The notes: generated from the letters alone by a model not told the origin. 64,000 nt of DNA from an uncultured Planctomycetales bacterium (GCA_964374105.1 CAYJXI010000001.1:199743-263742), one strand, 5' to 3'. Counted from the first letter of the stretch, positions 6,001 to 46,228 are shown. Numbers and translations: made by a program.

Positions 6001-9000
6001 GATCTTACATTTAAGACATGCCGAAATCCTAAAACGGAAGCAGACCCCAATGTCATTTCAGACCGGGAGTGTTATGACCGGGAAAAGAATCATCGGTTTA
6101 GAACAAAGACCCGATGAATTTTCCACCCACAAATTCAAAGAGGAATTGACTGGGGTCTTAGAGATGCTCAAGGTTTATGTGGAAAGACAAGCGTCACCAC
6201 CAGGCATGCCCAATGCCATGGTGCCTTGGGTTTATGATCGTTTGGTTCAGAGAGGATGGTATCACAGGGCTATCGGTATAGCCATTATTTTGGAGGCTAT
6301 TTTGATCTTGAAAGTTGGTCAGGTATTAGGTCTTTCGGTTATTGGATTTGGGATTTTGAATTTTGTCATCCATTTGATGGGGCCGTTGTATCGGTGGATT
6401 GAAAAGGAAGGGAAATGGATCATCGAAAAGACCGATTGGCCGAAGGAAAGACTTGAGGCCTTCCGCTGGGCCATGAATTTTGTGGTGAGTGGCATGGTTA
6501 TCTATACCCAGAATGACAAATCCGCGCACTGGTTATTGGACTTATTTCTGCCTCCTCAATTCGCATTTCTCTTCGGATATCAGATTCTGGGTATTCCTGT
6601 TATATCGATACTCGTAGCGATGAGTTTGCATGCCCTTAGAAATTATTTACCGCGAGTATCCGGCTGGGACGTTCCCTTGTTGATGGCAGGCCTGCCTGAC
6701 CGGCAGGCAGGTTGGGTTAAGCTGGCTGCAAAGAAACGTACGTTTGGTAAAACATCCCATCCGCCTAAGCCTTCTCAATCTCCTCGAAAACCAAATCGGG
6801 CTTGGAAAGTGGCGTTTGACCGCGCCTTTAAAATTAAAAAACTATCTCAAAAGTTAAAGGCCTTGGATCGATTGGCAAAATCTTTACACAGCCCAGGTGT
6901 CCTTAAGACATGGAGGAAAGAATTTCATAAGGTTTATCGCGCGATTGTGGTTGAGGCGTTTCGCCGCAGCCTGTCTTACGAAGGCGCATCGAGAGTTTTA
7001 GGATTTGGGGATAACACAGAAAGGCTGTATCAGTTGATGTACCGCCTTAGGTTGACAGCTCATGAGCGAAAGATGATTGCTCAGTATGTTGCAAAGGCAA
7101 GACAAAAGCAATTTCGTTCCCGCCGAATGGCCATCAAAGAAATTTTCATGAAGAGTCAAACGCGGCAGGAGGCCTTAAGGAAGGTTAAGGCCATGGATCG
7201 GGTTAAACGCAAAGATGAGAATTTCCTGTGGAGTCTTGCAGACAATTATCGGCTTAAACGTGAATACAGGGCCCTGATGGAGCGTCATCGAAAGAATCAA
7301 TCCGAAAGTTTAACCCAAAAGAAGTTAAAGAAATTTAAACCTGTTCTTCAAAAAGCAATTCAAAAGAGCCGGGGCCGACCTGTCCTTATAGCTCAGTATT
7401 TTGGTTATCGATACTTCTCACTTCTCGTCAAATATAACAAAAATACAAGATTGATGGAAACATTGCGTCCGATCATTATTAAAGCGACTTTAAGATTTAT
7501 AGAGAAGGTCAAACAAAGGCCTATTGATGAACAGCACCGAATCTATGTTGAACTTCAAGATGTTACCCATTGGTTTGGCAAGGAGGAAAAAGACCACTTG
7601 GGAGTTATTTTCATTAGGACATTAAATAAGGCACACGCGAGAATTATGCAAAAGGCCTGGGTAAGGGGCAAAGGCGATAAGAAAGAGGCAGCTAAGAATC
7701 TCGGTGTATCAACTAATCGGATGGATGACTGGGCCTTGAGGTTTGATTTACCCTTGGCCAAAGATATCAAGATCATTGAGTCGTACCTGCAATTGATCAG
7801 TGAGCCGTTCCCGCCACCAAATCCGCTCAATCGGTTAGCTGAGCATTATCATGTGACAATCTATCGAATCCGGAGTCGATTACTCAATTTAAGTCAAAAA
7901 GGACAACAAATTGGTTTAGCCCCTCTGCCGCTTCTCCATCCCATAGGATGGTCAATGGATTTGGCAACAAGACTTTTGATTGGGGTGTCCTATGAGCTTT
8001 GGTTGAAAAATAAACATCGATTTGATTCATTAAGACAGAAGGAACAGGGGAAAGGGGAATCCAATACAGAAGAACAACTGAAAGCCGAGGTTATAAAAAT
8101 TAAACAGCAAGCACAGGAATTGGCTTTTTCTATGGCGAAACATTTCCTTCAGAAAGAGCGTTCTCTGATTTTAAGCAAGTTAAAGGAAAAGAAGGGGGAC
8201 CTCAATGAGGCTGCCTTAGATCTTGGGATTTCCTCAAAGAAATTAAAAGAGAAATTTGAAGAACAAAGATTATTAAAGATTTGGCAGTCCCTTTTGTTGA
8301 ATGCCCTTAGAACTCGAATCAAGATCATTGAACAAGATAAAGGTTTAACTCAAAAGGAGCGTTTGGAGGAGTTGAAGAAACTTTACGATCATCCGCAGGG
8401 GGATTTTAATCTCGGGCGTAAAACAGTTCTGTTGGCCATAAGGAGGATTTATCATTCCCTTTTCCTTAAGAAAGACACCTTGGCGCAGACGGCGGACTGG
8501 TTTGCAATAGATTTAGATGAACTGCTTAAGGACATAAGGAAATTTAGAATCAAGGGCGAGGTTGTTAAACAGCAGAGCCGGTCGAAAGCAAAACAGGAAC
8601 AACAGAGAACCCGTTCTCTTTCCAAACAAATCATGGACATTTTGAAATCCCAAGAATTAACTTTGCGTGAACGTTATCAGAAACTGACTCAATTGGATAA
8701 AGAAACCAAGGGTAAGAATAAAGCTGTATCCGATTTGTTTGAATCAGCCACGAAGCGTTTGGTGATTCTTGCGATAAATCAAGAATATACGATTACAGAC
8801 TCAGCCGAAACTTTGGGAGTCACAAGATCAGTGCTAAAAGCAAGGATTAATAAATATGGTCTGGTTTTATTGGTGGATAATCAAAAGAGACGTTTGGAGA
8901 TGAAAAACTTAAGAGAGGCGAAACAAACAAAGGAGAGAAAGAAAAAAGAACAACAACGAAGACAGTTAGAAATGGAAAGGCAGAGGAAGAACAAGGAAAA

Positions 9001-12000
9001 ATTAAAGAAAGAGGAAGACGAACACCAGGCGGTCAATATCCGTATGGCCGAAGGGGTCGTTGAGAAGGTCATCGGAGATTATGACTACCTTTTGCCTTCC
9101 TATCCGATTCTTAAAGGTTTAGATGAGGTTTGGAAACGCCTTGAGCAGATTGAGCAGCAGTACGGGCGTATGTGGGATGAAAGCCTCAAGAACATAACGT
9201 GGAGGGGTGTCGAAGGAAGATTAAGAAATCTAGGAATTGATTCTCGAAAAATGAGGCTGGTGAAAGAAGTGTTCGATCGAGCAGATTTTAAGGAGGCGCG
9301 AAAGAGAGTCCGGGATTTACAGAAAGAAATGAGTCAAGTGCTAGAGAGGAAAATCCTGCAAAAACTAAAGACCGATCCCCGTTTAAGAGAACTCATAATC
9401 CTAGGAAAATGGCAGAGTGTGAAAGACGAGGTTGTCAGTATATTAAAGGAGATGGCCAAAAGCAGGAGCCAACTCAAGGCCACTTATGAGGTGGGTTATC
9501 CACTCCCCCGATTCCTCTTAGATGATGATGAGGAGGTGCATGATTTTAGACCTCTGGATGCCCTCATGGCGGGATTATTGGTGGCTATCTGGGTAGGGAT
9601 TGGGATTGTGGTTTCCACTCTCATTTTAGGAGCGGGGACATTAACAAATGCGATTATGATCTTGGGGATGGTTTATTTAGGCATCGCATTTGTCAAGTTC
9701 AATTTAATTTATGAGGTCGCTTTCCGGGCGATTGCCTTATGGAAGATGTCAGAGAAGCTAGGGATTCTCGATGAAATGAGACAGGGATTTTCTGAAAATA
9801 GAGAGAAGGAAATATTATCTAAACTGGCACCTCAGGAGATTCAAGAAATTAAAACAATCTCCATCGCCCGATCCGATGGGACCTTAACACCCGCCTTTGT
9901 TGCGTTAAGAGAGGATTGGTCTATTCCATCTTTATGGGGTAGAAATCATATTTATCGATATGTCAAAAATCAAATCCTCTGGCATGAAGAATTCAAATCG
10001 CATTGGGTGGGGCTCTTTATGATGGCCCCTGGGTTTAAGTGGATTTTAAACATAGGTCGATTCTTATTTGCCCTTCGAGCGATTATTCCTCAATTGGTTA
10101 TTGGGACGTTAACAATTCTGATCGGCCGGCAGATATTAAGCCTTTTGGGGATCAATGTTTCCTCTTTGTGGTCTTATTTTCTTATTGGTGCCATGATGAT
10201 CTTTAACCTTTGGCTGTATCATGATCTGACTTTCGTCTCCCGCAAATTAAAGGAACTCAAGAGAGGGAGTCAGATGGAACAAATTCTGGCCCTTGAGGCG
10301 CTTGAAAAGAAAGAACGTAAGTGGAGTAAACGGCTCATTAACACCCTTGGCGAGATTATTATCGATCAAGAGAGTCCGTATGAGGCTCGAGTAAAAGCCT
10401 TTGAGGTATTTAATCGCATGCTGATTCGAAATCCGCATTTCTTAACCAGACAGATGTTTGCCGACATTGTCGCAAGTTTTGGATTTTTTGATCTGCACAA
10501 TATGTTTACTCGCTTGTCACACTCCGTACCCTTTCATCTTTTTAAATTAGGGGAGATCCTGCAGGACTTGATTAATTACATTTATCAATTGGTTGAGCCC
10601 TTTAGTCGAAAATTCCAGCAACAGGTGTTACAGGTCTTTCAAGATTATTATCTTAGGGTGATGGTGCATTTACCAGAAGATATCCAGTATAAGGAAGTCA
10701 GCTTTATCAAAAGATTGATGGGAGAAGATTTGAAAGAGAAACGCAATCAAGGAGAAATTCTCTATCCATTAGAGACAATTAAAGCGGCCATTGCTATGAA
10801 GATTCAATTGCATAGGTTGCAAGATTTAGAGAATGTTACCCCTCTTGGCTTGGGGACAATGGAAAGGATCATCCAGTTTCTCGGCCAGGGTTATCCTCAA
10901 CAAACGCGGCAGTTCCTCGAGATGTTTGGTATCGATGAGTTTCTAAGGATTATCAGGGAAATTCACCAGACAGAAACCCATCGCCGCAAATCAGGGGAGA
11001 AGGTCGTGCCGTTGTCAGGCCAAGAATATTATGAAGAGATTCAAAAGAAGATCGAAGAGCGTTTAAGACAAAAGGAAGAGGGAGCTGCAACTGCCGGATC
11101 CATTTCTCATCTGCCAAAACGAGATGATCTGGATTATGCTTTCCCGCGTTGGCAATCTTATCAGTTATCATTGAGTGTCTTATTAATTTTATTGATGGGG
11201 TCGGCCTGGTTCCAAGAAATCCCTCTTTTACGTCCTTGGGGTGATTTGGGCTGGATGTTTCTCTTAAAAGTTTTACTTCCTGCATGGGTGAGTTATTATC
11301 TTACCCTACCATTCATCAATTTTATTCATGAATTGGGTCACAAGATTATTTTGAAGAAATTCGGAGTCAAAAGCAAAATTTGGCATGACAGCGAACGACA
11401 AATTTTGCGAACCCATCCTGACCCAGCCCAATTTGGGAAATTGTCTCCCAAGAAAAAAATTATTGTTTATCTTGGCGGTTTATTGGCCGAGTTTATTTTA
11501 TATTCATTGTTTGCGGTAGGGTTTGGTTTGAATCCATGGAATATGATGAACGGGTTATTATTATTCGCGCCGTTTAAAATTTGGTTAATAATGACGACTC
11601 TGATTGTAAGTATCGGTGTCTTATCGCAATTCCCGCCTTTCAGCCGATGGAATTCATTAAAGACGGATATAGAGAGGGTGTTAGAGGAGATTCGAAAGCT
11701 AAGCGGGGGCCCCACTTCGAAGGAGAAAGATCAGGAATCTAGAGACTCTTTCCTCAATAGTCCTTCTTTAAATAATCTTAACAATGGATTCTCTTTGAGC
11801 AATGACAAGGAAGACCAAGGAGACGGTGATCATGGGAAAAATAGAAAGCATACTCGTTATCTTAACCGAGGCTCAAGCGTTTCGAAATCGGAATTGATTA
11901 ATGCCTTGATGAAAAGAAACGGTAATCAAGACCGGGCAGCTAAGGACTTAAGTGTTACGGGGGGGACACTCTCTTGGCTCATCAAGACAAAATATAAGCT

Positions 12001-15000
12001 TAAGCCCAAGGTTTTAGCTATCAAGAAAAGAGTCAGAGAGCTCCTTGGTGCCTTCCAGATAACTCAAGGGAATGAAGATAAGGCCCGTGCTGTTTTGGGA
12101 ATGACAAAGGTTGATTATCAAAGGGAGATCCGTGAATACGGGTTAGAAGATCAATTGGCCAAAGAGAAAGAGATTGTTTCTTATCTCATCCAAAAACTCG
12201 AGGCGGCCTCGGGGCAAATGACAACTGTGGCCAGGGAGTCAGAAGAGTTCTCGGAACATAATGTAAGAACACTTATCAGGCGATATCAATTAAAGGAAAT
12301 CATCAACAACGCCAAAAAGCGGACCGGTGAATTGACTCAAGGTTTATTGGAGCACAACCTCGATATCGATCAGGCAGCTTTAGCATTAAAGATATCCAAA
12401 GAGGATTTAGAGAAAGAGATGGCCCGTTTTGGGACCACAGTCGAAGCACTTTATCAAAAATATCAAGCTGAGCGTCAAGAAAAAGAAAAGCGAATTTTGG
12501 AGGCAGTAGAGAACCATGGCCTCGATTGGAAGAAGGTGGTCGAGGCTTCAGGTTTCAGCGAAAACTACATTTTTGATGCTATTCATCGTTATCACCTTGA
12601 ACTCAAAGTGGTAAAAATTTTGGTGGACCACTTGCAAAGATTGCAAAAGACTTTATCCGAAGTCAAAAGTTTCAAAGAACTAAAAGGAATGTATGACCAA
12701 ACGGATCGGTTTACAATGAGATTCTTAAAGAAGCCGATCATTTTAGAAATGGCTTTAGAAAAATATCGCGGGGAAATTCTTTTAGAGGGAATCCGACGCA
12801 AGCAAGGCAACGAAACTCATGCCGCTAAGGCCCTAGGATTTTCTTTGCCTGGATTCAGGCGGAATATTCGAGTTTATGGTTTGAAGGATAAAATAAAGGA
12901 GATGAGAGAATTTGTCAAAAAGTTAATCCATACCTTCAAGACTCTTCAAGGGGACAAACAAAAGGTTGCTAAGGCGCTAAAGATGAAGGTGGATAGATTT
13001 GAGGAAGAAGTTGATCGATATGGATTAAGCGATTCCTTTGAAGAGATTCAACTAAGGGTCGATGAACTGAAAAGCCTACTTAAGAAATCCGCAGGCAACC
13101 TTTACCAATTGGCCAAGGATTATCGTATACCATATGTCACTCTGCAGGAAGAAGTCAGTGGTCATGGATTAAAGGAGAAACTGCGCGCCATTCAGGATGA
13201 GACGAAACGCTTACGTCAGTCATTTGAAGCTGTGAGCGGCAACAAAATGAAGGCCGCTAATAAGCTGAAGATCACGGTTGAGGAATTTGACCATCGGATT
13301 GAGGAGTATGGATTGGCGGAGGTTATCCGTAAGACAAAAGAGAAGATCGATAATTTAAGGGATCTGATTGAGGAAACCGGAGGTAATCTTTCTAAAATCG
13401 TTCGGATGAAGATCAAAGGGATGTCTGAACCAATGGTATTTAGAGATGTTCAGCGTTACGGTTTGATGGGATTGGTTCAGCAATTGCGTCGGAAGGATAA
13501 GCCGAAGGTATCTGAAACTCCGTCTGTGACTGCCACGTTGTTTACTCAACGCAGGGCGTGGCTGAAAAACTTGCCGGCACGATTGATCTTCAGTGTCGCC
13601 ATTATAATTCAAGAATTGGTGCATTTGATTGCGGCGTCTCTTCGTGGATTACCCATTAAATACTTTGGGATTGGGCATCTGTTAAGTGCAGTCGAAATCG
13701 ATTACGCTCGCGCGCCACCGGTGGATGAAATGATCGTACGGTTGGTCGGCCCATTAGCCAATCTTTGGGCGGGTCTTGTGGGCCTTATCTTGATTGTTGC
13801 CTTTGACCTTTCTTTGATCCCACAGGGATTTCATTTGAGTTTGGCGACATTGCTCCAATTTTTCACTTTGATCAATTTCGGATTATTCATAAGTGATAGT
13901 GGCCTATCCCTTCTTTTTAAACGAGGGGATGTTTGGGAGGCTTGGGAGGCTTGGAATGAAACCCATTTGCAAAGGTATTTTGCTCAAAATCAAAATTGGC
14001 AAAGCGCCATCTATGAATTATCTGTCTTAAAAATGAATGGGATAATTGCGGGATTCGCTATTACCGGAAGCTTCTCCCGTGGACAGTTTCATTCAAAGAA
14101 AGGACATGACTTTGATCTCACCATCTTTCCCAAGACAGGATTGATGGGGGAAATGTACTTGGCTATCGAGAAGCTGGATAAAAAATACCGGGATCAACCC
14201 TTGCGTGTTCATATCACCCTTGAAGCCTATGGCCCAACTTACCAATTCTATGAAGAGGACCATCGGATAAAACTTGTTTATTACATGGTCCGAGGGGATC
14301 GAGTCCTTGAAAAGATGATCGAAAAAGATCAATACAAGAGCGATCGCCTCATTGATATCACTCATGAGAATTTAAGTATTTTCACCCCTGCCTTTTTGGC
14401 CAGATTGCATCGAGAATTAAGTTCACTGAAACGTCTCAGTTTGGATGAGCTTCAACATCTTATTCGTGAGCCACCGGTCATTAAGGTTCCTAAAGCCTAC
14501 GTTCCTCACTCTCAAAATCAACCCGGGGACGACACTCCGCAGACGCAAGAGGATTCAGAGGAGCATCCCATTAGATCAGAGAACATGTTTGCTCAAGGAG
14601 CGAAGGAAGAGGATCCATTCATCGCTGATCGATTCAATCTCTTAGGCAGGGCTTTGAAAACCCTCGAGGATAAATTAAGGGAGGATATCACCAAATCCGG
14701 CCAGATCATTGACCTTCCGGAATCGGCCTATTGGGTTGTCTACCGAACCAAAGAAGGACAAATTATTTGGAATCTGAGCAAAGAAAAGATTCGGGAGATC
14801 TTGCTCAATAATAGTTTTGAACCTGAAGAGATCGAGTTTGTCATCGATCAAATCGAACTGCATGAACAACAGCCTAACGAAGGGCTCGGCCTAAAGAAAC
14901 AACAGGAGAGCTTGATTGAGATCAGGAATTTAGAATTAGAAAAATTAAGACATGAAAAAGAAGTCCGAGGGGAAATGGCCCGTCTTGTCAAAGAAAGTTT

Positions 15001-18000
15001 TGATCTTGATAATCAGTTTCCTGAGTTTGAAGACCTGGCAACGCTTTTAAAGAAATTCAGAGACTTCAATGAAAAGAAATGGACATTAACAATTGGCAAG
15101 AGAGGAACAACCGCGATTACACCAGTTGTCGGGTTTGGGGTTATCCAATTTTATTCCTTAAGGCCCGGAGTAGAATACAGAATCTTTATGTCCTGGCTCC
15201 CTTTTAGCGGTATTCGGATTTATTTTGGGCATCCGTCACACGTGGTGGCCTTTGAGGTCAATGCTTATCGAGAGCATGTCGATAAGAAAATAAAGAAAAT
15301 GACCCACATTGGCGATCGGGTTGATTTATTTAAGACAGAAGTTCCTGAAGAAGAATCCTTGGAATTGTTTATCTTAAAAGATTTAATTGGTGATTTGGTT
15401 AAGACAGAAGAAGAGTTTGGCTTACTTCTGGAATTGAGAAATGAAGAGACCGCTCAAAGGATGTTAAACGATCTCATTGCGGAGAATATCGTCGAGGAAC
15501 TGGATCTGGAACAAAAAGCAAAACCGTATGTTATTGAAGATATTCCTCCGGGAGTCCAATTGAGCCTTGAGAGGTATTTAGCGCGCTTAAGGCAGGAAGA
15601 AAGGGCTTATCAGGAATCAATTCAACGAAAAGAAAAGGAAGTCATCACTCCCCCCATCCCCCAGGAGGACGTTTACGAGCTTCTTCAGAAAGCAGAGGAC
15701 AAAATCATTTTGGAAGAGCCAGAAAAGGTTCGGCTCGAAATCGAAGAAATCCCCGCCGAAAAGATGGAGGAGTATAAAACACAAATAGAACAAGAGGTTA
15801 AGGAGAAAGATGAAAAGGAGAAAGAAGTTGTTCTGGAATACCCATCGTTGAGTGATCAAGAGATCTTAGAGTTTGTTCAGAAGATCATTGAAGATGATAT
15901 CACTCTTCAAGGAACAAGGCTCCATCATCCACAATGGCTTAAGTATTATCTTTTCGAAGGGATGTCCTCAAGGAAGATCAGCACGTTAGTGAAAACTTCA
16001 GACTCCAACGTTCGTCGCAGGATCAGAGAAGATAAAAAGCGTCTTATGACAATCATGCGGATCAAGTATGGAATATCACAAGAACGGATGAGGGAAATTT
16101 TTAAAGAAAAGGCGGATAGGTCACACTGGCCCAAGGAATATGACTTCTTAGAAAAAATTATTGGAGAGGAAATCCCTCGGGAAGCAACAAGGCTAGCGCA
16201 TCCAGAATGGCTTAAATTCTATCTTTTTGAGGGGAAGTCCTTCAAGGAGATTGCCCGGATTGCCAATACCTCAAAATCGAATGTGATTCAACGGGTAAAA
16301 AATGATGAGGAGCGTATTACCACGATCATGAGAATCCAATATGGAATATCGGAAGATCGGATGAGGGAGATCCTTAAAGAAAAGGCACAGAGGGCTCGCT
16401 GGTCTGTGGAATATGATTTCTTAGATCAAGTCAATGCCTGGTTGAAACAGCCCAACCAATTCCCATTACCTTATAAATTCAATTTGAAGGATACTGATCG
16501 CAATAGTGTCTTGGTATTCAATTTTCTAGGCATTCCTTACCGAGATTTAAAATTCGGCAAGATCAGTCCCAGGAATGATTTTGAATTTGGATATGTTTTA
16601 GAAGTTTTTAGTGAGGCAAACAAAGCAACAGAAGCATACCTCATTGCTGATCAACGTGGTCGAAGACCCCAAGTCTTCTCTGATGATGATTTGATGTTTC
16701 AAGGCAAGGGGGCAGATACCCAATTGCTCAAATGGGCCCTGGCGAAAAGTTTGGCTATCAATATCACTTGGGCCGCAAAACCACGAAAGATCCATAAAGA
16801 TTATTCAGGAAAGGATACAACTGGATCCATTGATCTTTTTGAGATTAAAGATGGCAAACTGAAACCCACCCGCGCGCGGCTGCCTCCCACATACACCTCC
16901 CAAAGGCCTCTTATCCCTTATATCAGTGCAGAAGAATTCACGACCTTTTTAGAAAAAGGCTATTCTGTGATCTTGCTTAAGGAACAAGGGACAACGAAGG
17001 TGGTCATGAGGGTCATCATAGGACGATTAAATAATCAATGGGTCGTTGAAACCGATTGGGAGGGTGATTATACGGACTGGAAGGAGAGCAGTATTCGTGA
17101 AAGAATTTTTAGTGACTTGCAGAAATTTTTTGAAGGACAAAGGCTAACGGTCCCGAATCTGAAGGATCTTGTTGTTAATTTCACAGAAAGAAAAGGAAGA
17201 AAAGTGGCAACCGCTTACTTGGGCGGCTTGATCTATCTAGGGACTCGCTATCCGCACATTTCCGTTCAAATCGGAATTTTGCGATCTGCGCCAGGGGAAT
17301 GGCTTTTGGGTTTATGGGAACCCAATCGGGATAAGAGATTATCCCAACCTTTTAGGATTTTAAAGAAAAAGGGTGATGTTTGGATCAATGTGAAAAATGT
17401 TAAGGTTCGATACTTGAACCAAAGGGATCTTCTGCCAAGGGCCAGCCTTCAGACACCGATCGAATTTTTAGAAAGATTTAAAGAGACTGCCCAAGGATCG
17501 CATTTCATGAAAAATGATTTCATTGAAGAGGTCAAGAGACAGCTTATGATTAACCGAACTTATATTTTGGAAATCCTGTCTAAGGTTCTCAAGCTGATCC
17601 CTAAAGAGCATGGGGCCGTTGAATTCCTGGCTCAGATTGTCCGCGAGGTCAATGATCCCATTTTGACCAATCATATTCAACTTTATTCCTTGCCTTACTT
17701 TGGGACAGCCCTGATGCGTCAGAGAAGTTACGATTGGGGAGAGGAGATTAACAAAATTTTGTATCCCCAGGGACGGAAAGGTGAACATCAGGGTAATCAA
17801 AAGGATAAGAAAAGGAAAAGTAGAAATAGAAATAAGGATAAACTCAACGACAGCAAAGATGATGAACAAAGAAATGGCGGCCCTCACCTGACTGACGGTC
17901 GGGGCGGCCCCCGCCAAGGCGGGGCAGGCCGCTGGCCGTGGATGGTGCCGGTGTATGAGGGAATTGGTAAATTGTGGCCACGTGGCCACAATTGGTCCTG

Positions 18001-21000
18001 GAGTGGAGAATTCATCAACTGGGTTGTTGCGTCAAGCTTGATTGAATCCGGGCTTTTTGTCGGTGGTGGGATGATTGCGATTTTGAAATGGGCCTTCGGG
18101 TTGCCACTTATTTTAGGGCCTCCGCAAGCATTGGTCATTGTCGTTTCCTTCTTTATTCTGCAGTTGATGTGGCATCTCCTTCACGGCCCAGAGGCTTTCA
18201 CCAAAGATAAAATTGCTATTTCAAGATTAGCGGTTATCATCCTTGCCTTAACATTAAGTCTTATCAGATTTTTTGATTTAACGGGTATTGTGTTCTTAAC
18301 AAGTATTGTGCTGGCCATCATATTGCCACATGCGGTTATTAATGCTTTCAGGGAAGGACAACAATTGAGCAAATTCAGTGCGGGAGGCGGATCCCAAGCG
18401 GGAAGAATTCATAAGGCATTACGAAGGTTTCCAAACACGAATTTCATTGGTACGAATAAAATCCCGGTCGTTGGTGGCGATATTTTGAATCTTATGTTTG
18501 GACATGAGGGCCAGGTTCAAAGAGTCATTGGCCATGAGTCCGTATTTTTTACTCATCAACTGGGCAGAATACAAGACGTTGCCGGTCAAATTCCAAACTT
18601 TAATATTCATTTTGGGGATGAGCGAAACAGCTTCAGCGGTTTTAGTAAGCTGTTGGATACATTTGGGATGATTTCTAAGATAAGTGACGGCTTTGCGGGG
18701 AGTGAGGTCAAATGCTTCAATTGCTTCAGCGATCATCAGCCGATGCCAAACCTCGGCAAGAACGATCACCGAGGTAAAACCAGGAATTTCTTTATTCTCA
18801 ACGCGGATAAGAAAGTCAGTGCAGGAATCGATAATCCCGAGAAAATGGTAAATGAAGATATTGGAATCAATGAAAATCGATTGACCCTCAGGAACCTTCG
18901 AGAGCATTTAACCTCCCAGGGGGGTGAAATGGGGAGATTCGGCAATGATTTTACCGAATTTATTGCGGACATGAATGATCGCCTTGGTAAGCCGGGCTTT
19001 GCTCTTTTCATTTTCAATAATGAGCTCTACCTTTTGGTAGTTGCGCAAAGGCAATTTCTTGAGGGGGCGGATAATGCCTTTTTCGTAGATGCCAGCAATT
19101 TTGATCATAATTCATCTCCTTATGCAGTTTCGAGTATAGCTTCTTCGAAGAAGAAAGTCAACCCCCAAAATCGGCGAAAACAAGAAAAGGTGAATCTCCT
19201 CTTTAAGCCCGAATGGACGATTTTCTCTGACGATTCACGAACCCCGAATCACGATTCCAAAGAAGAAGGCGGCCCCCGCCAAGGCGGGGCAGGCCGCTGG
19301 CCGTGGATGAAGAAATTTTATAATTTCTTTGGTCAAAGATGGATGGGCCAGGCCTTGATGCCTTCCTTGGTTGAATCCGGCGGTTTTGTGGCGGGGATTG
19401 ATTGGCTATTATCTCTTGTCTTTGGTTTACCTTACGATTTGAGTCCACCGCATCTAGGCCGTATTGGGATTCTGCAGTTGGTCTGGCATCTGTTGCATAT
19501 CCCACGAGGAAAACCAAAAGAGTCTGTCAGTCCCGCCAAGGTCAGCATAACGGTTGTCAGTTTATTGTTGTTAGGATTCCTGCCTAGTTTTATGAACTTG
19601 TCTTATATCTTCTTAACTATTTCTTTCATTCTGAATTTCGTACATTTTATTGTTAATCTGTTTAACCCATGGGAGGAAAGTCCACAAGGATCATCCCTAG
19701 GCGAAATCAATCCTTTTGGTTTGAAATTAAAGATGGTCCTGGGTGTAAGCCTTTTAGGGATGGTGTTCATGGGATCTCTGTACGTGATGGGGGGATTGGA
19801 TTGGTATCTTACCTTAAAGAATACGCTCATTGAAGGAAATCTTGTGACTTGGAAAGTAGCGTTCATAGATATGGTGACTGGCGCATTTCTCTGGGGTTTT
19901 GGAAATGTGATTGGGCAATATTTGGTCAAACACCCGGCCCGTATAGATTGGCGCCATAATCGATTGGTAACGGCCTTTGGTTTGGCCGGCGGGTTGGGGA
20001 CGCATGTCCTTTACAATTTATTAATGGGACTGGCCATTACCGGTGGAATCAAAAGGATGTTATTTATCCTTATGGGGGGACTCGTGTTGACGCTGTTATT
20101 TACCGTTTCCGAATCCCTGGCCCGACGGTTATTTAACATCAAAAAGTTTTCGGTTAAGGATGAGCAGGCCAAAACGCTTGATGTCCTGGCCATCAAATTC
20201 CTCATCGCCTGGCCGAAGTCCTTCATTGTCGCTAATCTCTTACCTTTACCGCTGCAGGTCATCAGTGAACAGATTTGGGATTATTTCTTGAAACCGGTCG
20301 AGTCCTATCTGATGAACCGGGACAAACCATTATTTGTTGAACCAATATTGCATCGAGTTGTTTGGCCGATGTACCTAAGGGTCAGTTCGGTAATAAACGG
20401 TTTGCAAAAATTATTCCTGGATGACCGAGGTGTCCAAGTGAGAAATTTTGTTCAGGAGTTGTATAGATTACAGCCTCCGCTGCCCATTTTAGATGAAACA
20501 GGTGTTGATCACCAGCGTTACCCTGGGGATCATGAATATTTTTCGAATTTTAAACAGCTGTCCACATTACCGCGGCATAGCACCCTTGGACAACCCGCTG
20601 TCTTTAGTCCATCCGAGACCACATTTTTCCTGATGGCGCATCTTCCTGTCCAAAAAGGGGACTCTGTTTTGGATGTCGGTACCGGCACCGGGGCGTTGGC
20701 CTTTCATGTCCTAAGGCAGGGGGCTAAAGAAGTGTTGGCCATTGATATTGATGAACACGCCGTAGCCACGGCCAGAGATAATGTCAAAGATGCCGGCTAT
20801 GCCAGGCGCATCAAAGTTCGGCAAAGCGATGTGTATGCCAATATTCAAAGAGAAGAAAAATTCGATCTTATCGTATCAGCGCCGCCGTTATTTGCCGAGG
20901 GACGACGTTCTGATCCAGCCATCTATGATGAAGGGTACCGGATGATAAGCAATTTAATCCAAGGTGCCGGGGAACATCTGCGGATAAATGGACGGGTGGT

Positions 21001-24000
21001 CTTTCTCCATTTAATCGGCTCTTATGGCGGCCTGATGACTACGGCCGAAGCGGCAGGGTTTGATTTAATAACCTTGGCGGTTTCCTCTAATATGCCGTTT
21101 GCCATTTACCAATTAACCAGAAAGAAAGATGACTTAAGTTCACTGATGAAGGAGGAAGGCCGTGAGCCTCAGAAACTAAAAGAGATTATCCGGATAAAGC
21201 TTGAAAATTTGCCTCTCCCATCCGCTAAATTTATTCTTGAAAATTTAATCCTGAAATCCACGTATCAAGACCCAGAGATCAAGAACTATCTTTCGGCTCA
21301 GGCGCGAATGGCGCTTTTGGCCAAGGCCTTGGCGGTTTCCCTGAAAAGAAAGGATGCAAATGAGATGGCCGTTTACCTTGAATCTCTCCTTAAGGAATCT
21401 CGCCATTTGATCCTACCTTCTGCACTAATGTTTATCCGTTCTTATTTAACCGTGTATTATCTTAAACAACCGCTAAAGCTTGCCTTTGTGATTCCTGTTT
21501 ACGGCGGACAGAAGGCCTTCTTGGATTTTAAGGATGGCGGAGAGGGCTGGTTGAGGTTCAAGGTTGATCAGTTCTTTGTAGAATTGTTATCGGTCAATCC
21601 AAAGGTCAAGGGAAATTTCATCTTTGTCAATGACGGAGATGATTCAGCCAAGACCGGAAGAAAAACTAGTGATGTGATCCGCGACCTCCTTAAAGATCCT
21701 TTTTATGACAAGGTGCGTGGACAGATCTTTGTTCTCGATCTGCCGCAGGAGACCAAGGTTAAGATGAAAGGAAAGAAACATAGTGCGGTTGCGGCGGGAA
21801 TGAAGTTTGCCTTGGAAAGAGGAGTGGATATTGTCATGTACACCGACCCGGATCTGGCCAGTCATTTGGGATTGAGTGGACTCTTGGTTGATTCTTTGAT
21901 CAACCGCGGATTTGACATGGCGTTTGGTTCGATTGAAATGAAAGGTTCAATTGTTCCTATTCGTTCATTCAAACGCCGTGTTGGGACTCTTGCTTATAGT
22001 CTTTGGGTGAGGATTAATCTTATAAGATACATTCTTAAAGTGAAAGATACCCAAAGGTCTTTCAAGGCCTTTAAACGAGAGATATTAGAGAAGATTATGC
22101 CTATTAGGAAAATGAGTGCTGATCAAAATGGGATCATCCAGCTTAAGGATTATGATCCCGATTTCCATTATGATTACACCGGTGACACCGAATGGATGGG
22201 GCGCGTGAAGATTGTGGGAGGAGGTTTAGAAGAATTCCCGATCGTTTGGATTGATTCACCGCAAACCGCCCAAACAAGTCTAAAGAAAGATGCCTGGCCG
22301 ATGTTTAAGGCCCTAACAGGGCAGAGAAGATCTTTAAGGAATTTTGCCTTAAAGCATTCTGGATTACGATCAACAAATCACGACCCGCAAAACAAGGGCC
22401 GTAACGACAAGGCGTGGGTCTTAGAGGATTTCCGGGATGCTCCCAAGCTCGAGGTTCGGGATGAGAGAAGTCTAGGCTTCGATCCTTGGCGAGATTTGAT
22501 TAAGGAAGTGGATACTTCTTTATTGAAAGAAGCGATTGGTTTGATTCAGCACACTGATGAATTCCCAGGGCAAAAGAGTTTGGTGAATATCCTTAAAGAA
22601 CTCATGAACTTTAGGCGGATCTTTTTTGCTAAGAACCTGCCTGGGATGTTTAGGGCCGAGCGACTCAATGAGGGAGCATATTTGATTTTGATCGATCAAT
22701 CATTGCATTGGTTATTTGGCGGAGCGGACTCTCTGATTCGTATCCGCAGTCCTTCCCCCCGTCAGAGAAAAGCCCTCTTAGCTTTCCTTGCGGCCAAACT
22801 TCTGCATGAGGCCGCGGAAATCCTTATGTCGAATCATCCTAAAGTGCATTGGCATTTGGATGAAAAAGATCCCTCCCTCACTACAACCGAACAGGTTGCC
22901 TACTGGGTTGAGGTGATTTTCTTAAGCCGTATCCCCGCCTTCTGGTTTGATTTTAAGAAATTCCTTAATCCCACAACCGTCTCTCCCTTATTTGTTCTTT
23001 ATGAATCTGTTTTTAGTGGGGAAGAATCTTTAGGCCGTTCCCCGGATCAATCTCCCAAGCCGTTAAGGCAGTTCCTGGCTACTTTAGGTTATCTGGCACC
23101 TTTACAGACTAAACTCTCCCGGGAACTTTTCAAACATATCCTTCAGCAGTTCGATGTTAATCTAGCGGAATTTGAAAGGCAAGAGAATCTTCGGGATTTG
23201 ATTGAATCCACCGTTGGTATTGCCGCGGCGCATTTTGATGACAGTCCCATCGGACGGTTAGCAACTGGAGTAATGATCAGCCGGGATTTTCTTATGACCA
23301 GTCTTCATGTTGTTGAGGATGAACAGGTACGGTTGCAGTCCTTTTTCAAGATTTATATGTTTGTCCCGAGGTCAAATGGCAACAGCCTTTTAAGTAAGAA
23401 ACCCAAGATGTCTGAAGCGAAAGTCGTGGCTATGCATCTCAACCAGGATTTGATGTTATTGAAGATCGATCCAGCCTCGATCCCGTCAGGGATTGTCTTA
23501 AGAGAAGTTAAGCTGGGGTATCAGGAGAGCTTGAAGGGAGGAATGCCGTTAATCATTTCCACCCTTCGTTCAGATGAAAAAGCGATTGATGAGAAGGCAC
23601 CGAGAATTCAGATCACCTCCACTTTGATTCCTCCTGTCGAAGAGGACCTCATTTATATGAAATTTGCTTCATGGAAAGGAGTGAGTGGCTCGCCCGTTGC
23701 TGAACGAGGTGGGCGCTTGGTGGGGATTTATATCGCGACTGAAAAATTAGGCATGAAAGATAAGGGTGTCGCGCATTCCATTGGGGCTGTGCGCAGCATG
23801 ATCGAGACATTGAAGATTCCACTGTCGCAGAGTCACGGCCGTTCAGCAGATCATAAAAGTGACAGTCACTCCCGCCATGGCGGGATGACTGTCACCTTTA
23901 GAGAAAAAATTAAGAAATGGTTAGTGAAGGCAATCGAATTTCAGGATAATATAATTCGAACATCACGAATTCCTATCTTTAAGTTTTTAAGGCTGCTATC

Positions 24001-27000
24001 TTTTGTCCTCAGGAGTTTGGGGAGACAGACGTTCAACCTGCCGTGGCTGGTTGAGTGGTTCTCATCCTGGCGTTTTCTTGGGATGGGAAAGATAGCGGCC
24101 TTTGTATTCAAAGAAAAAGGTGATCCCGCCAAGGCGGGATCACCTTTCCCCGCTGAGATATCAAAAGAGCAGCATGGATTCCTTGGGAATTTGGATCAAG
24201 ACCACTTAAGGAGTCTTCAAAGAATCGTTGAGTCGAATCGTGGTTTTGAATCCGTTAAGGAATTTAATCGTATCCTAGGTTCCTATTATGGGATTAAAGT
24301 CGAATTCTATTATTTCACAGACCCCTTCTCACGTTTCCCACCGACGCCCTTTGTGGCGGCTTTCCATCGCCAAACTCAACTGAGAATCTTTTTCTCCTCA
24401 GTTCATTTCTTGAATCAATTCAAAGTTCATTTTAGGAATCAGTTGTCTTCTGTTTTACAGTTGATTACAACCCATGAATATATGGAAGTGGTCCAAAGGA
24501 AATCTCACCAAATGGTTGATAAACAAACCAGCCAACTTTATAAAGACAGAGAGCAAGGCACCTTAATTCTGGAAAAATTAGACGAATTCTTTGGGACTAT
24601 GTACCTTGTCAATGCGTTTCTTGATTTGGAGAAATTGACGAGTCCTTATTGGAATGTCCGCAAGAAGACGCAAAGGCTGGCAAAAAAGGGCGGCCTTCAA
24701 GGGGCGGTTATCCCGGCAACAATGCTCATTCGCCATCAAAATAAGGATGGCCCTGAGGCCAAGGTAGTGGATGAAATGTTCCGTCAGGGTTGGCTTAAAT
24801 TTGTTCATTTAAGTGAAGAGGTTGTTTTATCCCACAATCCCAGGTATACCTATCAAGCTGTTTATTTGATTGATATCCCAGAGGAAAAGATGACAAGCCG
24901 TGATGTTCCCCTCAAAAGCCTTAAAGAATATCTTAAATTGGGAGAAGAATACCTTGGAGAAGAATCTTCTTTGGAGGAAAGAAGAGGCCGTTCGAAAGAT
25001 CGTTCCCGCCCCCTTCCCGGCAAAGACATGCCTTCAGCGGATGACATCAAAAAAGAGCTCCTGAGAGTTTTAAAACCTTATAAAAATGTCATTAACGAGC
25101 TGCCCCTCTTGAAGCCCAATAGCCCTGCGATGATCCAAGCATGGGCATTTTTAAAGAGAGATAAAGATCATCCCACTTTGGCACCTGCGCTTGAAACCTT
25201 TGCCAGAGAAGGCCGTATCCGGGCCGGGCCATTTGAAGGCTTCTTGGCTACAGTTTATCGAGTGAAGAAAGGAGGAGAATACATCCTTCTTTCCACCGCC
25301 TATCCGGAATTCAATTCCACCATCCAGAGAGCAGCCTCTCTTATTCATGAAATTGGTGCAGTCAGCCTATTTCATCTAGATCATCCAATGAATGAAAATA
25401 GAGAAAGGACCTATTTGACCGAGAAGGTCAGTGAGCTGATTTATGAACTTCAGTATCGCTCCACCGATGAGATGTTCGCTGACTTGGCGAATCTGCGTCA
25501 TTATTTTTCCGAGGGACATCTCGAGCAATTGATCCATTTAATCTTAATCCAAAAGGGTCTCCCTCAGAAAACAATAGCTTATATCATTGGGATTATCTCA
25601 AGTTTAGCCGAAGCTAATAGGAAGATATTTACACCGAAAAATTTAAAGGCGGTGCTGGAATTGCTGGCAGAGAAAGAAAAACATCCCATGATGGATCAAT
25701 TGATTCTATTGTTTAAGGATGCCAATCCACCGGCTTTCACAATCGAGAATCTGGCCTTTGTCATTGACTTCATATTGACTGTAATTGAATTCCAAGAAAA
25801 AATTGTCGAGGTTATTTACATTTTTAAAAAGATCAATCCTCTTTCATTTGACACAACGAATTTTAATACTATTCTTCCCCTGGCCGAGGAGGACCGGACA
25901 GAGGTGCGGGAAACCATGTTACGCGTGGCTAGGATCTTTAGAGAGGCGAATCCTTCCGTGTTTACTGCGGCTGGATTGTCCCAGCAGTTTGTCCGATTAA
26001 GGACAGAAACAGAAATGAAGTTTCTCATCAGTCGACTAAGGCTAGTGGCTATTTATTTTGAGGCGGATCAGGGATTAGCACAAGAAAAAATCTGGAATGA
26101 TTTATGGGATCTGCCAGTCATCTTGGAATATGATGATTATTTGGTTGCTTTCTATGACACGTTGGCCTCACTGATCAAAGCCAATCATACCATCGTTAGC
26201 GAACCTCATCTTGAAAGATCCATTGGCAGCTGGATCAATGATTTTACGGATCCGGGAGGGATGTTAACGGGTGGTGATGTAAAAGTGATCGCGGCAAGAC
26301 TTAGACTGTTGCATGTCTTTTTACGCGCTAACAAGACCTTGGCTACCGAATCTCGATTCGCCCGGGTGATGATTTATTTATCGCAGGGGCTCAGTTTTGA
26401 TCCTTTGATCCTTCGGACCAGTTTTGAAATCTTAAAGACGTACGCAGAAATAAATCCTGATCCTAAGTTTTTCTCAGAAGATCATTTGAGCATTGTCATT
26501 AAAAGTTTGGTTGAAGAAGTACCCAAACCGGGAGAATTCGAAAAGCCAAAAAATCCCCACCGAGTTGATATTGTCAAAATATTTAAAAACATCAACCCGC
26601 AATCATTTTCTTATAAAAATTTATTGGCAGTGATTTACTTTTTTGCTCAATCGGATGAACTGGTACGACAACAGGCCAGTCAGATATTGGACATCTTTAT
26701 TGAGGTGAATCATCATATTATAGACGATTCGATCTTACGGGCCTTGGTGGTGGTTAATTTGATCGCTGAGGAATTGTATTCCGAAGCTATTCAGGCAACC
26801 CAAAGAGTCAGGGGGCTACTAGGAAGGGAGCCTTTTGATATTCAAGATTATGATCTCATCGTAAGAAATTATCTGCCGTTCCTGGAAACCTGGGAAGAGA
26901 AAATCCGTGCGTATCAACGCCTTAAGGCAGGGGAAATAGAAGGATTTGATTTTAAGGCCTGGCGGGAATTTATATTAGACCTTACGAAAGAACAGGGGCT

Positions 27001-30000
27001 TGTCTTTGTTTGGCTTTTGGTGTGGGATATGTTGGAATTAAGAGAAAGAACTGAGATTCTGGATGATTTGCCTGTCCGAATTGATTCTTCGGCAGATCGT
27101 TGGGACATCGAACTGATATTCGGAAGAAAAGGGATCTTTGATGCTTTAAGCTCATTGGAAGTCCATGATCGGCGCAATGCACAGACAGCTGTTTTAAACT
27201 ATTTCGGCAAAATCAAATGGATTCAGAAACGCTTGAGCCGTGATCCGCGGATGAGTTTCTTATGGGAACTGGATGAGCCATCCTTAAGGGACTTGATTAC
27301 GATTATTAAAATTACCCATACCAATAGCACCTTGGTCTTTAATGCCATGACCATGGCGGAAGTTTTACCTGAGGAAATTAGAAGTCTCATTAAGGTCATT
27401 CCGTTTAATAACACTTTAACTGCGGTGATCAACCTTTTCGGTGAATATGCCAATTTCATCATGGATTTGCGCAGTAACGGCAAACTCAAATTTTTAATCG
27501 AAATGCTGACCTTTGTTGGTTTAGAGAAGAAACAATACTCGCTCACTCAAATTGAAGGGATCTTGGGCTATCTTGCTGAACACAGATCCAAAGTTCTGAG
27601 TTGGAGTAAAAAAGATTTTCAAGATTTTGAACTGGATTGGTATTCCTATTCAAAGGCCATCCCGATCTTCCATTCTCGCCTGTTTGAGTATTTTATTAAG
27701 TATCAAGCTCAGGAGCACCTGATTCAGCAAATGAGTCAGGATGTCCAGGAGGAATTATTGGGCATCGCTTGGGGCAAATTTAAAGGATTAAAGGGAAATT
27801 TGCGAAAGTATGGGATGACCGATAGGGATGAATTTGTTTTGCTGCAAAAATACATCCCAATCAAGGGATACGGGCCTACCATTTATGCGGATGTCTTTCA
27901 GAAGTTGACCGAGGCTGTTGAAACAAGAAAGATAACAAGAGAGGATGAACCAGAATCTTATCTCTTAGATCAAATCCTTTTGGTGAGAGGAGAACGGGAG
28001 ATCAGACATCTTAAGGGATCAGAAAAATTGAATGATCAATGGATGGATCAGATGCTGAAACTTTTTGCTGAGCCGCCAGCGGAAAGTTTGTCTTTATCAG
28101 AGCGTATAAGTCAATATCTTAAGGAGGGTCTCTGGTCTAGAGAGCTAATGGAGCAGTCGGCGATCATGTGGCTGTTAGCAAAACCCACCTACCAAGAACG
28201 GTTGTCGAAATTAAAGAACAGATTAGAACAATTTGATCGTTCTGATATGACTTTGCAGATCGAAAGCTATCTACAATTGATGGAGGATATCCAAGTTTTC
28301 CTCTCGGATACCTGGGAAAATGATTTAAGGGATGCCCGCAGTCAACTCCTCAAAGAAGTGGTGGAAAAAGAAAGAAAGGCGGGTTTAATTAACTTATCAA
28401 CGGGTTTAGGAAAAATTGCTGTTGTCAAAATGCCCCGGAAGAAACTGAAAGCGGTCTTTGCAAAGATTGCATTGCCCTTTGATACCCTTTCTTTAAGTCA
28501 AACATGGGCCCAGGAATTAGGTCTAACGTTGTGTGATAGGAATTCTCTGAAGCGGCTGAAGGAAGAATGGAAAGTCAAAATGATTGAGTACATTATTTCA
28601 ATCTTTAAGAAAGAATCCAAAGGGGAGGTGGCCGAGGAGACTAAGGCAGCAATTAATGAAGCTTTTGATCTTATGATTTCAAAGGAAGAAGAACGAAGAA
28701 GCAAAAATGAGTTAACCAATGAAGAAATCCAAAAGATAACTTTAGATTTGGAAAGAAATTTACGGGAGATATTTAAATCCAAAGTTCTGTTATTGGAAGA
28801 AGAGACGCAGAAATTTGAGACTATCACACTTCCGGGGATGGGGAATACGGTGGTGATGGGACTCTTTGGGGATCCCTTGAATTTGATGTATTGTCAGGGA
28901 GAATGTACTTTCCGCGATTGGCCAAGGGCGATCCTTGATCAAAGATACTTTTATATGAAGTTATTGATTAAAGAGCCCGGGGTGGAAAGTGGAGGGCGTG
29001 TCTTAGGGGGAGCGCAAGTACAATTTTTAAAAGAGACAATCAGAGAAAGAAAAGTGAAAAGGATGCCCCGGGGTTGGGCGATTTTGAGTTTACCAGGGAT
29101 CAATATGGACGAAGGGATCGATAAGTATGGGATCGGAAAGCGCCAAGGGATAAGGTTCCTGTTAGAATTTGCCCAGCGGTTAGCCGAGGAAACCGGACTC
29201 CAAGGAGCAGTCATCCCCATCGATATTTTGATCCGCCACCAAAATTCTGAAGGACCCGAGGCAAAGGTGGTTGAAGAACTGATTCAAAAGGGGTGGTTGA
29301 AACCGGTCAAGTTGAGTTCAACCGTGGAACTAGCCCCTAAAACAGAATTCAATAATCAGTATACTTACGAAGATGTGTATCTAATAGATATTCCTAAAAA
29401 CGAGATGATGACAAAGGAGACACCTTTTTCAAATCTCAAGGAATATCTGGAAAGGGAGGAACAAACACCGTCCCTTGTTGCCAATCTTCCCGGGATCGGG
29501 GTGTGGATGCGGGTCTTATTGGCAGGGGGAATCTTGCCGCATGAGTTAGGACACCTCATCGTTGGGCCTCAAAAGGGTAGAAGGTTAGATTACGGCTTAA
29601 GGAGAATTCTGAAAGGCCTTTTCTATGCTATGCCCTGGCCAACCCGAGGGCCGCCGGCCTTGGTTGGTCTGGCGGTGAATCTCTTCTTGGCGGTTGTTTT
29701 AGGGCTTTTGATCTGGTCAGGTTTATTGAACTTTGGGTTTACATCGAATTCTTCGGCCTTTCTCTTCTACCTCTTTATTTCCAGCCTTATCGTATTTCTT
29801 TTGGAAATCCTGCTCACCCCATTTGCGGAAAGCTTAAAGATAAGCCGATTTGCGGATTTAAGACAGATGAAAGGTGATCCCGCCATGGCGGGATCACCTT
29901 TTTATATCCCAGGGCCGCTGCGAGTGTTCAACCGACCGTGGCTTCCTGCACCACACAGGGTGCAGGACCATGAACCCAATTCCGTACCACATAGGGTACG

Positions 30001-45727: not shown

Positions 45728-46228
45728 GCCCATGACCCGCACTTTGACCAAATCCGCAAAAATGCCTTTAATGGTGATGATCCCCAAAGATCACAAACCC
45801 AATCTCCCAACGACCCCCACCGCGCGAAGGAGGGCGACCGTGTTGAGACAGACCATCCTTTAAGACCAATCAGCCAGCTGGGCGCCGTTTTGTGGCGATT
45901 TTATCAGCCTCGGGTGGCATGGGGATTTTTAAGAATTGCCTTTTCAACGACCGTGGCGAATTACCGGCACCTGCGCCATCACGGTATTCGCGGGGCGCCA
46001 CTGGGACGAATCCAAGCCGCACTCCGCGCGCCCTTCTTCAAAACCGCCGAACGTATTGACGGCCTGCCGCGGTGGAATATCGACCGCCATCTCCTCCCCG
46101 AAGATATCCAGCGCCTCGTTGACATCCACGAATCGCAACCCTGCTGCCGCTTGGGTAACCGCGAGATGGCGATAACCATTCAGAAAAGGGAAAGCAGACA
46201 ACGATCTAAAGAAAATTCAGCAGATGTC
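45728..46228 (+). other. Junction between the two giant ORFs. The single in-frame TAG (45725-45727) is followed by 54 stop-free in-frame codons that include a DPHRAKEGDR motif copy (45812-45841), then a ~400-bp GC-rich (~60%) block, before AT-rich ORF2 proper (an in-frame ATG is at 46229).
   Basis: Frame arithmetic: positions 2, 45725, 45812 and 45890 are all 2 mod 3. The GC-rich block shows ORFs on both strands in the provided track. Confidence 0.6.

Follow-up and report, generated by a model that had tools for sequence, protein, structure and literature searches.

The described systems closest to the locus analysed here are type II VapBC-like toxin–antitoxin (TA) modules built of a PIN toxin and an AF2212-like (DUF104) antitoxin; the long antisense open reading frames (ORFs) of Pseudomonas aeruginosa, which are evolutionarily novel ORFs inside ordinary genes (PMC8850804); the Rickettsia palindromic elements (RPEs), which are multi-copy, inserted in frame and translated as part of the protein (PMC10969869); the cassettes of integron arrays, where TA loci are thought to oppose deletion (PMC11551772); and the giant genes of Omnitrophota (bioRxiv 10.1101/2023.11.21.568195 and 10.64898/2026.06.07.730766), on which the two reports contain no mention of hairpin repeats, of nested or antisense genes, or of giant genes enclosing PIN or TA genes. 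The locus belongs to a stretch of 64,000 nucleotides (nt), the window, from an uncultured bacterium deposited under Planctomycetales (GCA_964374105.1 CAYJXI010000001.1:199743-263742). There, a giant ORF encloses, on the opposite strand, a two-gene TA operon that lies between two identical 42-nt direct repeats (the 42-mer, copies A and B), each of which opens a transmembrane (TM) module (TM-A and TM-B; Table 1). Like the Omnitrophota giant genes, this is a multi-domain ORF of more than 15,000 amino acids (aa) with transmembrane segments and enzymatic domains; its Pfam matches are Peptidase_M50, HTH_8, an S-adenosylmethionine (SAM) methyltransferase and Trypsin_2, a trypsin-like peptidase. An earlier note on this DNA had described the repeats and the cassette and was silent on the ORF, in whose frame (2..45727) the interval between the 42-mers wholly sits. 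The explanation tentatively preferred below, to which we give somewhat less than an even chance, combines a hairpin element at the junctions of two ancient modules with an independent antisense TA operon.

The nested TA cassette reported in the earlier note is genuine. Between the repeats the minus strand encodes a PIN protein (PF01850) and an AF2212-like protein (PF01954) that, by domains, gene order, promoter and ribosome-binding site (RBS), form a putative VapBC-like TA pair. As in ordinary modules of this type, the antitoxin gene precedes the toxin gene, the two abut, and they have a sigma-70-type promoter and an RBS of their own. The conserved acidic residues of PIN domains are likewise present, with D14, E52, D128, D147 and D149 invariant in 12 homologues; free-standing homologues occur among other TA genes, and the antitoxin–PIN pairing recurs in 9 related loci. 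No model in PADLOC or NCBIfam matched either protein, and an exact look-up of the PIN protein in an assembly index returned no match. Unlike ordinary VapBC-like modules, the operon of the window lies wholly inside another gene, is codon-aligned antisense to it and is purged of codons that would read as stops in the host frame, and its closest relatives are likewise open in antisense. An AATTCAT 7-nt repeat near the ends of the TA genes was considered as a target duplication and rejected, its right copy being located between the RBS and the start codon.

Because both TA genes are codon-aligned with the giant frame, only the codons TTA, CTA and TCA within them would stop the giant ORF. None of the 22 leucine and none of the 13 serine codons of the pair is of this kind (P ~4-9e-5, calculated from window usage, in which TTA, CTA and TCA make up 30% of leucine and 14% of serine codons). 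Elsewhere, the longest aligned antisense open run is 187 codons in the giant ORF and 134 in other genes. Codon usage also sets the pair apart from its surroundings: a strand score averages 0.65 +/- 0.19 in background windows along the giant ORF, the lowest value being 0.22; the PIN and antitoxin genes score -0.02 and +0.08, respectively, whereas TM-A (0.67), the spacer (0.41) and TM-B (0.58) are native and plus-strand-like. Since only the TA part departs from native usage, the foreign piece would be the TA unit rather than all of the 1365-bp interval. No other recognizable gene is nested in the ORF, as the ten longest other antisense open stretches gave no match in Pfam. A 1000-aa segment of the giant ORF spanning the locus had no homology match, and no called protein in 5.8 billion clusters mirrors the TA genes.

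Searches with the PIN and antitoxin proteins retrieved relatives at 57-83% identity on short metagenomic contigs. The open-antisense pattern is found in six sequences from different samples (seven contigs), and the open frames of L081, L083/L084 and L089-L091 (Table 1) include 393 flank codons beyond the TA genes. The contigs come from samples SRR22387786, ERZ27254759, ERZ4903185, ERZ27276474, ERZ23498622 and ERZ2433807. From the amino acid sequence of each contig and the codon usage of the window, the probability that antisense stops are absent by chance is 1.5e-5 to 2e-4, depending on the contig. Homologues at a greater distance (43-51% identity) come from longer contigs and stand free among ordinary genes; those with DNA (L085, L086 and L087/L088) contain 7-13 antisense-stop codons per pair. 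Between the window and its relative L089, the TA frame differs at 27, 22 and 81 first, second and third codon positions, respectively, with 60 synonymous and 43 non-synonymous codon changes; the TA identity is 77% and that of the antisense-frame peptide 48%. These codon differences, together with the antisense openness, show that the TA proteins are under purifying selection and that the opposite frame is kept open with an unconserved sequence. Two opposite-strand frames are thus both open with one of them under purifying selection, as in an embedded antisense pair of the P. aeruginosa kind. In contrast to the P. aeruginosa cases, the embedded genes of the window form an old, Pfam-recognizable operon, and the unconserved frame is that of the host, which merely reads through. 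In L083, the PIN gene is followed by a DUF2283 gene (805-993, E=2e-15) of the same strand and frame, which the antisense frame likewise crosses without a stop.

The 42-mer, GGCGGCCCCCGCCAAGGCGGGGCAGGCCGCTGGCCGTGGATG, occurs exactly twice in the window, on the plus strand and without a mismatch, at the two edges of the interval where the earlier note had placed it (from 17903 and from 19268); 100 shuffles yielded no match. The spacing of the copies is 1365 nt, or 455 codons. Both stand out from the 42.8% GC of the window as its islands of highest GC content. GRWPWM is encoded by the 3' 18 nt of the 42-mer, and the 24 nt before them belong to an unconserved linker; its 5' part is a GC-rich hairpin with a CCCGCC/GGCGGG stem. 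The folding expected in the earlier note is indeed found as a nested GC-rich hairpin of -24 kcal/mol, but shuffles of equal composition are equally stable (z=-0.7), and Rfam gave no match with E<=1 across 17000-20500. In copy A, the stem is lengthened by ACGGTCGG, which pairs with CTGGCCGT (Trp-Pro-Trp codons). The first 8 nt of the 42-mer, GGCGGCCC, are encountered again at 17877-17884, 26 nt upstream of copy A.

Each copy does open a paralogous membrane segment, as previously claimed: across 164 aa, TM-A and TM-B have 35% identity (E=4e-24). Without the motif, 34% identity remains at 54 bits, and both score higher against modules of other proteins (90 bits for TM-A with P0062, 92 bits for TM-B with P0069). 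Judged by these similarities, they are ancient paralogues, and the identity of the 42-mers is therefore not left over from the module duplication. In the pairwise alignment, identity is at background immediately outside the 42 nt on both sides, the outer aligned columns being 48% identical. Even if all 14 residues were fixed by selection, the same codon choice in both copies has a probability of ~3e-7, and identity of the 24 unconstrained nucleotides one of ~2e-8. Protein constraint and descent from the duplication fail to explain such identity, so that sequence-level constraint or recent recombination, the two options put forward in the earlier note, are the right alternatives.

A HMMER search with both modules identified 43 homologues (P0061-P0103), mostly in proteins of 2,000-8,000 aa and some with several modules. 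The motif G-G-R-W-P-W-[ML] opens the domain in nearly all of them and is preceded by a variable hydrophilic linker. Since each module has four hydrophobic helices, an extra copy leaves the membrane topology unchanged. The module is a shuffled domain whose neighbours differ in every protein, and in no case does collinearity of the 43 proteins with the window extend past the module. One of them, P0061 (6578 aa), contains three modules at aa 2134, 2721 and 3258 that are 32-37% identical and separated by unrelated spacers, their best-conserved patch being the junction motif GGRWPW[ML]Q.xYD; it shows that several diverged modules with non-homologous spacers are normal for the family. A scan of a viral collection for the module gave no match. 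An E...WxxxH...HxxxN arrangement of residues had raised the suspicion of a CPBP/Rce1-type intramembrane protease, which was ruled out by an hhalign probability of 0.1 against the Rce1-like domain of the window itself and by the lack of a PDB profile match. The AlphaFold model of TM-A, with a predicted local distance difference test (pLDDT) score of 47.5, is too poor for use.

The relatives also fix the limits of the TA unit, which comprises promoter, RBS, antitoxin and PIN genes and spans about 18419-19165. At the nucleotide level, L089 shares ~75% identity with the window over a stretch that starts inside the PIN gene and takes in the antitoxin gene, the RBS and both promoter hexamers; shortly beyond the -35 box, around 19165-19175, identity drops to 27-50%. 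At the opposite end, relatives are similar up to the PIN stop codon (18419). Both repeats lie outside this unit, copy B by ~100 nt and copy A by ~475 nt. The upstream flank of L089 (248 nt) spans the position of copy B, 160-201 nt upstream, and the 42-mer is absent from it; it is absent too from L081, the second relative whose flank reaches the equivalent position, and the hairpin core is absent from all related TA contigs. The ends of the TA cassette thus do not coincide with the repeats.

This bears directly on the view of the earlier note that the repeats are recombination joints. A pre-existing 42-mer before TM-B would have been duplicated when a block consisting of a 42-mer, TM-A and the TA genes entered by Campbell-type single crossover or by site-specific recombination, and the block could be excised again precisely and in frame. 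The repeats are sharp-edged, perfect and direct, and they flank an interval with foreign-looking genes; excision of its 455 codons would leave an intact frame, and the TM module, as a shuffled domain, has other neighbours in each protein. A length of 42 bp is, moreover, within the range of attachment (att) site cores and above the minimal length for RecA recombination. However, the TA unit ends well inside the interval and has relatives without the repeat, TM-A displays native codon usage, and the 3' part of the repeat is a conserved domain motif that is expected in both modules anyway. No integrase or recombinase was detected in the window, Pfam domains of recombinases, integrases and transposases being found neither in the giant ORF nor in the other ORFs, and the stop-free insert argues for long translated residence over routine excision. 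Taken together, the idea of sites that captured the cassette does not stand, and recombination joints are considered unlikely. The same note had held that its proposal would fall if relatives had the same architecture without conserved repeats, and this is what is seen in part, in L089 and L081. Integron cassettes with their attC sites offer a related comparison, since there too a TA module may lie between direct repeats able to fold as hairpins. Unlike in integrons, no integrase was found in the window, there is neither an attC architecture (R''/L''/L'/R' boxes) nor an array, the interval includes part of the host gene, and everything is contained within an ORF; direct reading of the 42-mer reveals no GTTRRRY or RYYYAAC box.

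The giant ORF contains a family of hairpins to which the 42-mers belong. With at most 1 mismatch allowed, the core CCGCCAAGGCGG is matched 10 times in the window, against 0.13 expected. The pattern CCCGCC-N2-5-GGCGGG has 7 sites in the window, all in frame within the giant ORF, and 1 site in the 1.47 Mb of all other fetched loci, at the GGRWPWM codons of the module in L092. Five strong hairpins (at 17903, 19268, 23862, 24116 and 29870) have the inner stem CCCGCC-AA/AT-GGCGGG in common, and their outer stems differ from each other, each being self-complementary. The core is read in two frames, as PRQGG/SRHGG in one and PAKAG/PAMAG in the other, and therefore points to conservation at the nucleic-acid level. 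L092, the one module homologue fetched at the DNA level (63% GC, 37% aa identity), reads CCCCGCC-CATCC-GGCGGG-CGA-TGG-CCG-TGG-ATG, which places the stem of the 42-mer directly at the motif; it is the only GC-only 6-bp hairpin of that locus. Further hairpins that resemble repetitive extragenic palindromic (REP) sequences are translated in frame at 5222-5299 and 29600-30400, where they give the peptides VIPAKAGIQ, RLRHSGMT, SFPRPPEAG and IPSYAGM, and the region at 29.6-30.4 kb looks like a former cluster of intergenic palindromes absorbed into the ORF.

Such a family invites the proposal that a small mobile palindrome of REP or Rickettsia type, with a transposase acting in trans, inserted twice independently and in frame and so gave rise to the 42-mers or to their 5' 24-31 nt. 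Dispersed copies with a common palindromic core, a trait of REP/RPE-like elements, are found within the 64-kb window. Besides the GC-rich palindromes with their common inner stem, a second near-identical pair (24116/29870) sits in non-homologous flanks, other REP-like peptides occur in the ORF, and translated in-frame palindromic elements are documented in Rickettsia (PMC10969869). Like REP and Rickettsia elements, those of the window are short, multi-copy palindromes in frame in coding sequence. They are distinct from the Rickettsia elements (~150 nt) in being 32-42 nt long and very GC-rich in a genome of 43% GC, and in one subfamily the palindrome falls on a conserved motif of the protein at the edge of a domain. 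Against independent insertion, both copies occupy the homologous position of paralogues and their identity runs through the protein-constrained motif; at only 32-42 nt, they show no terminal repeats or target duplications, and neither a REP-associated tyrosine transposase (RAYT) nor any other transposase was seen in the window. The 30-nt hairpin core was absent from scans of three public collections (GTDB genomes, JGI metagenomes and IMG/VR), and L092 suggests that a hairpin at the motif is old and not a recent insertion. Insertion of a mobile element is accordingly judged rather less probable than recombination joints.

Transcription termination, which the earlier note had proposed for the hairpins, finds support in one copy and on one strand. 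On the minus strand, the hairpin of copy B is followed by TTCTTCTTTG, which makes it terminator-like, 107 nt upstream of the -35 box of the TA promoter. Copy A has no T tract on either strand and copy B has none on the plus strand. Three members of the hairpin family, including copy B, are among the terminator-like sites of the minus strand, and 29901-29870 and copy B top that list. Three ACGATT repeats (19217, 19230 and 19251) between the TA promoter and copy B may be a binding site or may be due to chance.

Purifying selection on nucleic-acid structure, with no recent copying at all, would make the 42-mers a terminator or insulator pair around the TA genes, or a site of translational or transcriptional pausing before the membrane domain. 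A hairpin with the same stem at the same motif of a distant homologue (L092), the terminator-like copy B and the covariation of outer stems within the hairpin family are all in keeping with it. Yet an identity of 42/42 that includes loop, bulge and the unpaired 3' 11 nt exceeds what structure needs, as selection on a hairpin tolerates compensatory and loop changes; copy A is without a T tract, shuffles matched for composition fold just as stably, and Rfam recognizes nothing. Selection by itself is thus a doubtful explanation, ranked slightly below insertion of a mobile palindrome. An assembly or polishing artefact, whether by mis-mapped reads homogenizing the GC-rich junctions or by a graph loop threaded through the common 42-mer, is highly improbable: GC-rich hairpins are error-prone, but the motif is expected in both modules at exactly these positions, the frame is intact over 45.7 kb, and the stop-free TA genes are present also in independent assemblies and cannot be artefactual.

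The preferred explanation, a junction hairpin at two ancient modules together with an independent antisense TA operon, can be detailed as follows. The 42-mer would mark, as a junction element, the N-terminal edge of a conserved membrane domain with four helices; its first 24-31 nt and the Gly and Arg codons of the motif form a GC-rich hairpin belonging to a small in-frame palindromic family of the giant gene, with inner stem CCCGCC-WW-GGCGGG. Its two copies may have been made identical recently by short-tract copying between junctions, either through ectopic gene conversion or because the hairpin spread in a REP/RPE-like manner, and selection at the nucleotide level may have acted on the hairpin as well; this explanation takes the copies for neither att sites nor target-site duplications of the TA cassette. 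The self-contained VapBC-like operon would lie between the modules, antisense and codon-aligned to the giant gene. Selection would preserve the function of the TA proteins and purge TTA, CTA and TCA codons, and the giant protein would be translated through the TA genes as a ~300-residue linker of unconserved sequence. On the minus strand, the hairpins might terminate or insulate antisense transcription, copy B shielding the TA promoter. As direct repeats, the 42-mers would make TM-A and the TA genes deletable in frame, a deletion that TA addiction would penalize.

A second proposal is held with the same reserve, at just under one chance in two. A VapBC-like TA lineage may have been long embedded backwards in giant ORFs, with selection on both strands; the TA proteins would be conserved and the host frame open but unconserved, as a mirror-image linker, and the module may guard a recombination-prone giant gene from in-frame deletions between junction hairpins.

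Several observations weigh against the preferred explanation. Gene conversion normally needs flanking homology, which is absent here, so that copying would depend on the motif codons and the hairpin alone as its seed. The collections searched yielded no orthologous locus, no empty site and no second genomic copy of the 42-mer, and for this reason the timing and mechanism of homogenization are inferred and not observed. L092 is a single independent observation, and a hairpin at the motif may not be general; the peptides of the other 40 homologues have no conserved Pro-Arg upstream of the motif. For termination, there is no excess of terminator-like sites in total (19 versus 15.2 +/- 4 in shuffles), and copy A has no T tract. 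With respect to the nested operon, we infer translation of the giant ORF across the TA region solely from the openness of its frame. The related TA contigs are at most 1 kb long and do not reveal their taxonomy, and nesting inside a giant gene is, at present, seen for the window only. Finally, the TA genes of L082 have no antisense stops, yet one of its flanks does. In L082, the TA genes abut a truncated PCMT methyltransferase gene (3' fragment; 641-895), where the antisense frame is closed.

The giant ORF is followed downstream by genes for MutL and MutS. The closest relatives of the latter (64% identity) are found in L002, a metagenome-assembled genome (MAG) of Candidatus Omnitrophota, and in L001, which is labelled Planctomycetales; by MutS similarity, the window is assigned to a chromosome of Omnitrophota, a phylum known for giant genes. 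The MutS-anchored loci of these two nearest genomes stop short of any region equivalent to the TA locus. In L001 (14393-22558), the nearest MutS-bearing relative, a very long ORF (>2,721 aa) runs off the contig end beside MutL, in a position that matches the large ORFs of the window.

The next ORF after the giant one (45890..52798; 2302 aa, with an Rce1-like domain) is in the same frame and is divided from it by a single TAG at 45725-45727. The peptide that would be read across 45725-45890 contains NDPHRAKEG (45806), a motif of the repeated modules, and the two ORFs look like one frame of ~17,600 codons split by one stop, whether that TAG arose by nonsense mutation, serves for read-through or reflects a sequencing error. 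IRAGP, a peptide that matches the core of the SecM ribosome-arrest motif exactly, occurs six times (25217, 36392, 38468, 40118, 42389 and 49259), in five of the six within MEIRAGP or IEIRAGP, the best-conserved nucleotide patch of the ~2 kb repeated modules (families D1, D3, D4 and D5). At 15881-16426, a 273-nt unit is duplicated in tandem (71% identity), giving two copies of a helix-turn-helix (HTH)-like segment.

Table 1. Features of the TA locus, the 42-mers and the hairpin family in the window, with the antisense frames of related contigs.
Feature	Position	Strand	Remarks
Giant ORF, >=15,241 aa	2..45727	+	single open frame enclosing repeats, TM modules and TA pair
42-mer copy A	17903..17944	+	14 in-frame codons, GGPRQGGAGRWPWM; hairpin at nt 1-31
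TM-A, four-helix membrane domain	17909..18367	+	N-terminal motif GGRWPW[ML]; native-looking plus-strand codon usage
Giant-ORF read-through of antisense TA unit and flanks	18371..19267	+	299 codons, no stop
PIN toxin (putative), 162 aa	18419..18907	-	PF01850, E=1.9e-12
AF2212-like antitoxin (putative), 66 aa	18908..19108	-	PF01954, E=5e-8; stop abuts toxin ATG, same frame
RBS AAGGAG	19116..19121	-	7 nt upstream of antitoxin ATG; read from sequence; conserved in L089
TA promoter TTGACT-17-TATACT	19133..19161	-	both hexamers conserved in L089 (TTGACA/TATACT)
42-mer copy B	19268..19309	+	identical to copy A; 14 in-frame codons, GGPRQGGAGRWPWM
TM-B, ancient paralogue of TM-A	19274..19681	+	same domain family
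Hairpin family member	23862..23893		in frame; inner stem CCCGCC-AT-GGCGGG, own outer stem
Hairpin family member	24116..24147		in frame; AAAGGTGATCCCGCCAAGGCGGGATCACCTTT, read as KGDPAKAGSPF; frame differs from that of the 42-mer
Hairpin family member	29870..29901		31/32 nt the same as the 24116 copy; non-homologous flanks
Related contig L081			aligned antisense frame open 320 codons (whole contig); other antisense frames 14-23 stops
Related contigs L083/L084			aligned antisense frame open 331 codons (whole contig); other antisense frames 15-25 stops
Related contig L089			aligned antisense frame open 267 codons (whole contig); other antisense frames 16-32 stops
Related contig L090			aligned antisense frame open 185 codons (whole contig); other antisense frames 7-20 stops
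Related contig L091			aligned antisense frame open 225 codons (whole contig); other antisense frames 10-19 stops

Genes in bacteria are usually taken to occupy DNA exclusively; here, a complete, promoter-bearing operon whose two genes belong to known families is located inside a gene of the opposite strand, and the codon statistics show what appears to be selection on both strands. If this is true, the locus would provide a clean natural system for the study of dual-strand coding constraints, and half of the biology would escape gene callers that retain the giant ORF without the small genes or the reverse. It would also suggest how giant genes tolerate or exploit selfish modules and palindromes at domain junctions, and a hairpin that sits where a shuffled membrane domain begins may have a bearing on the modular assembly of giant genes.

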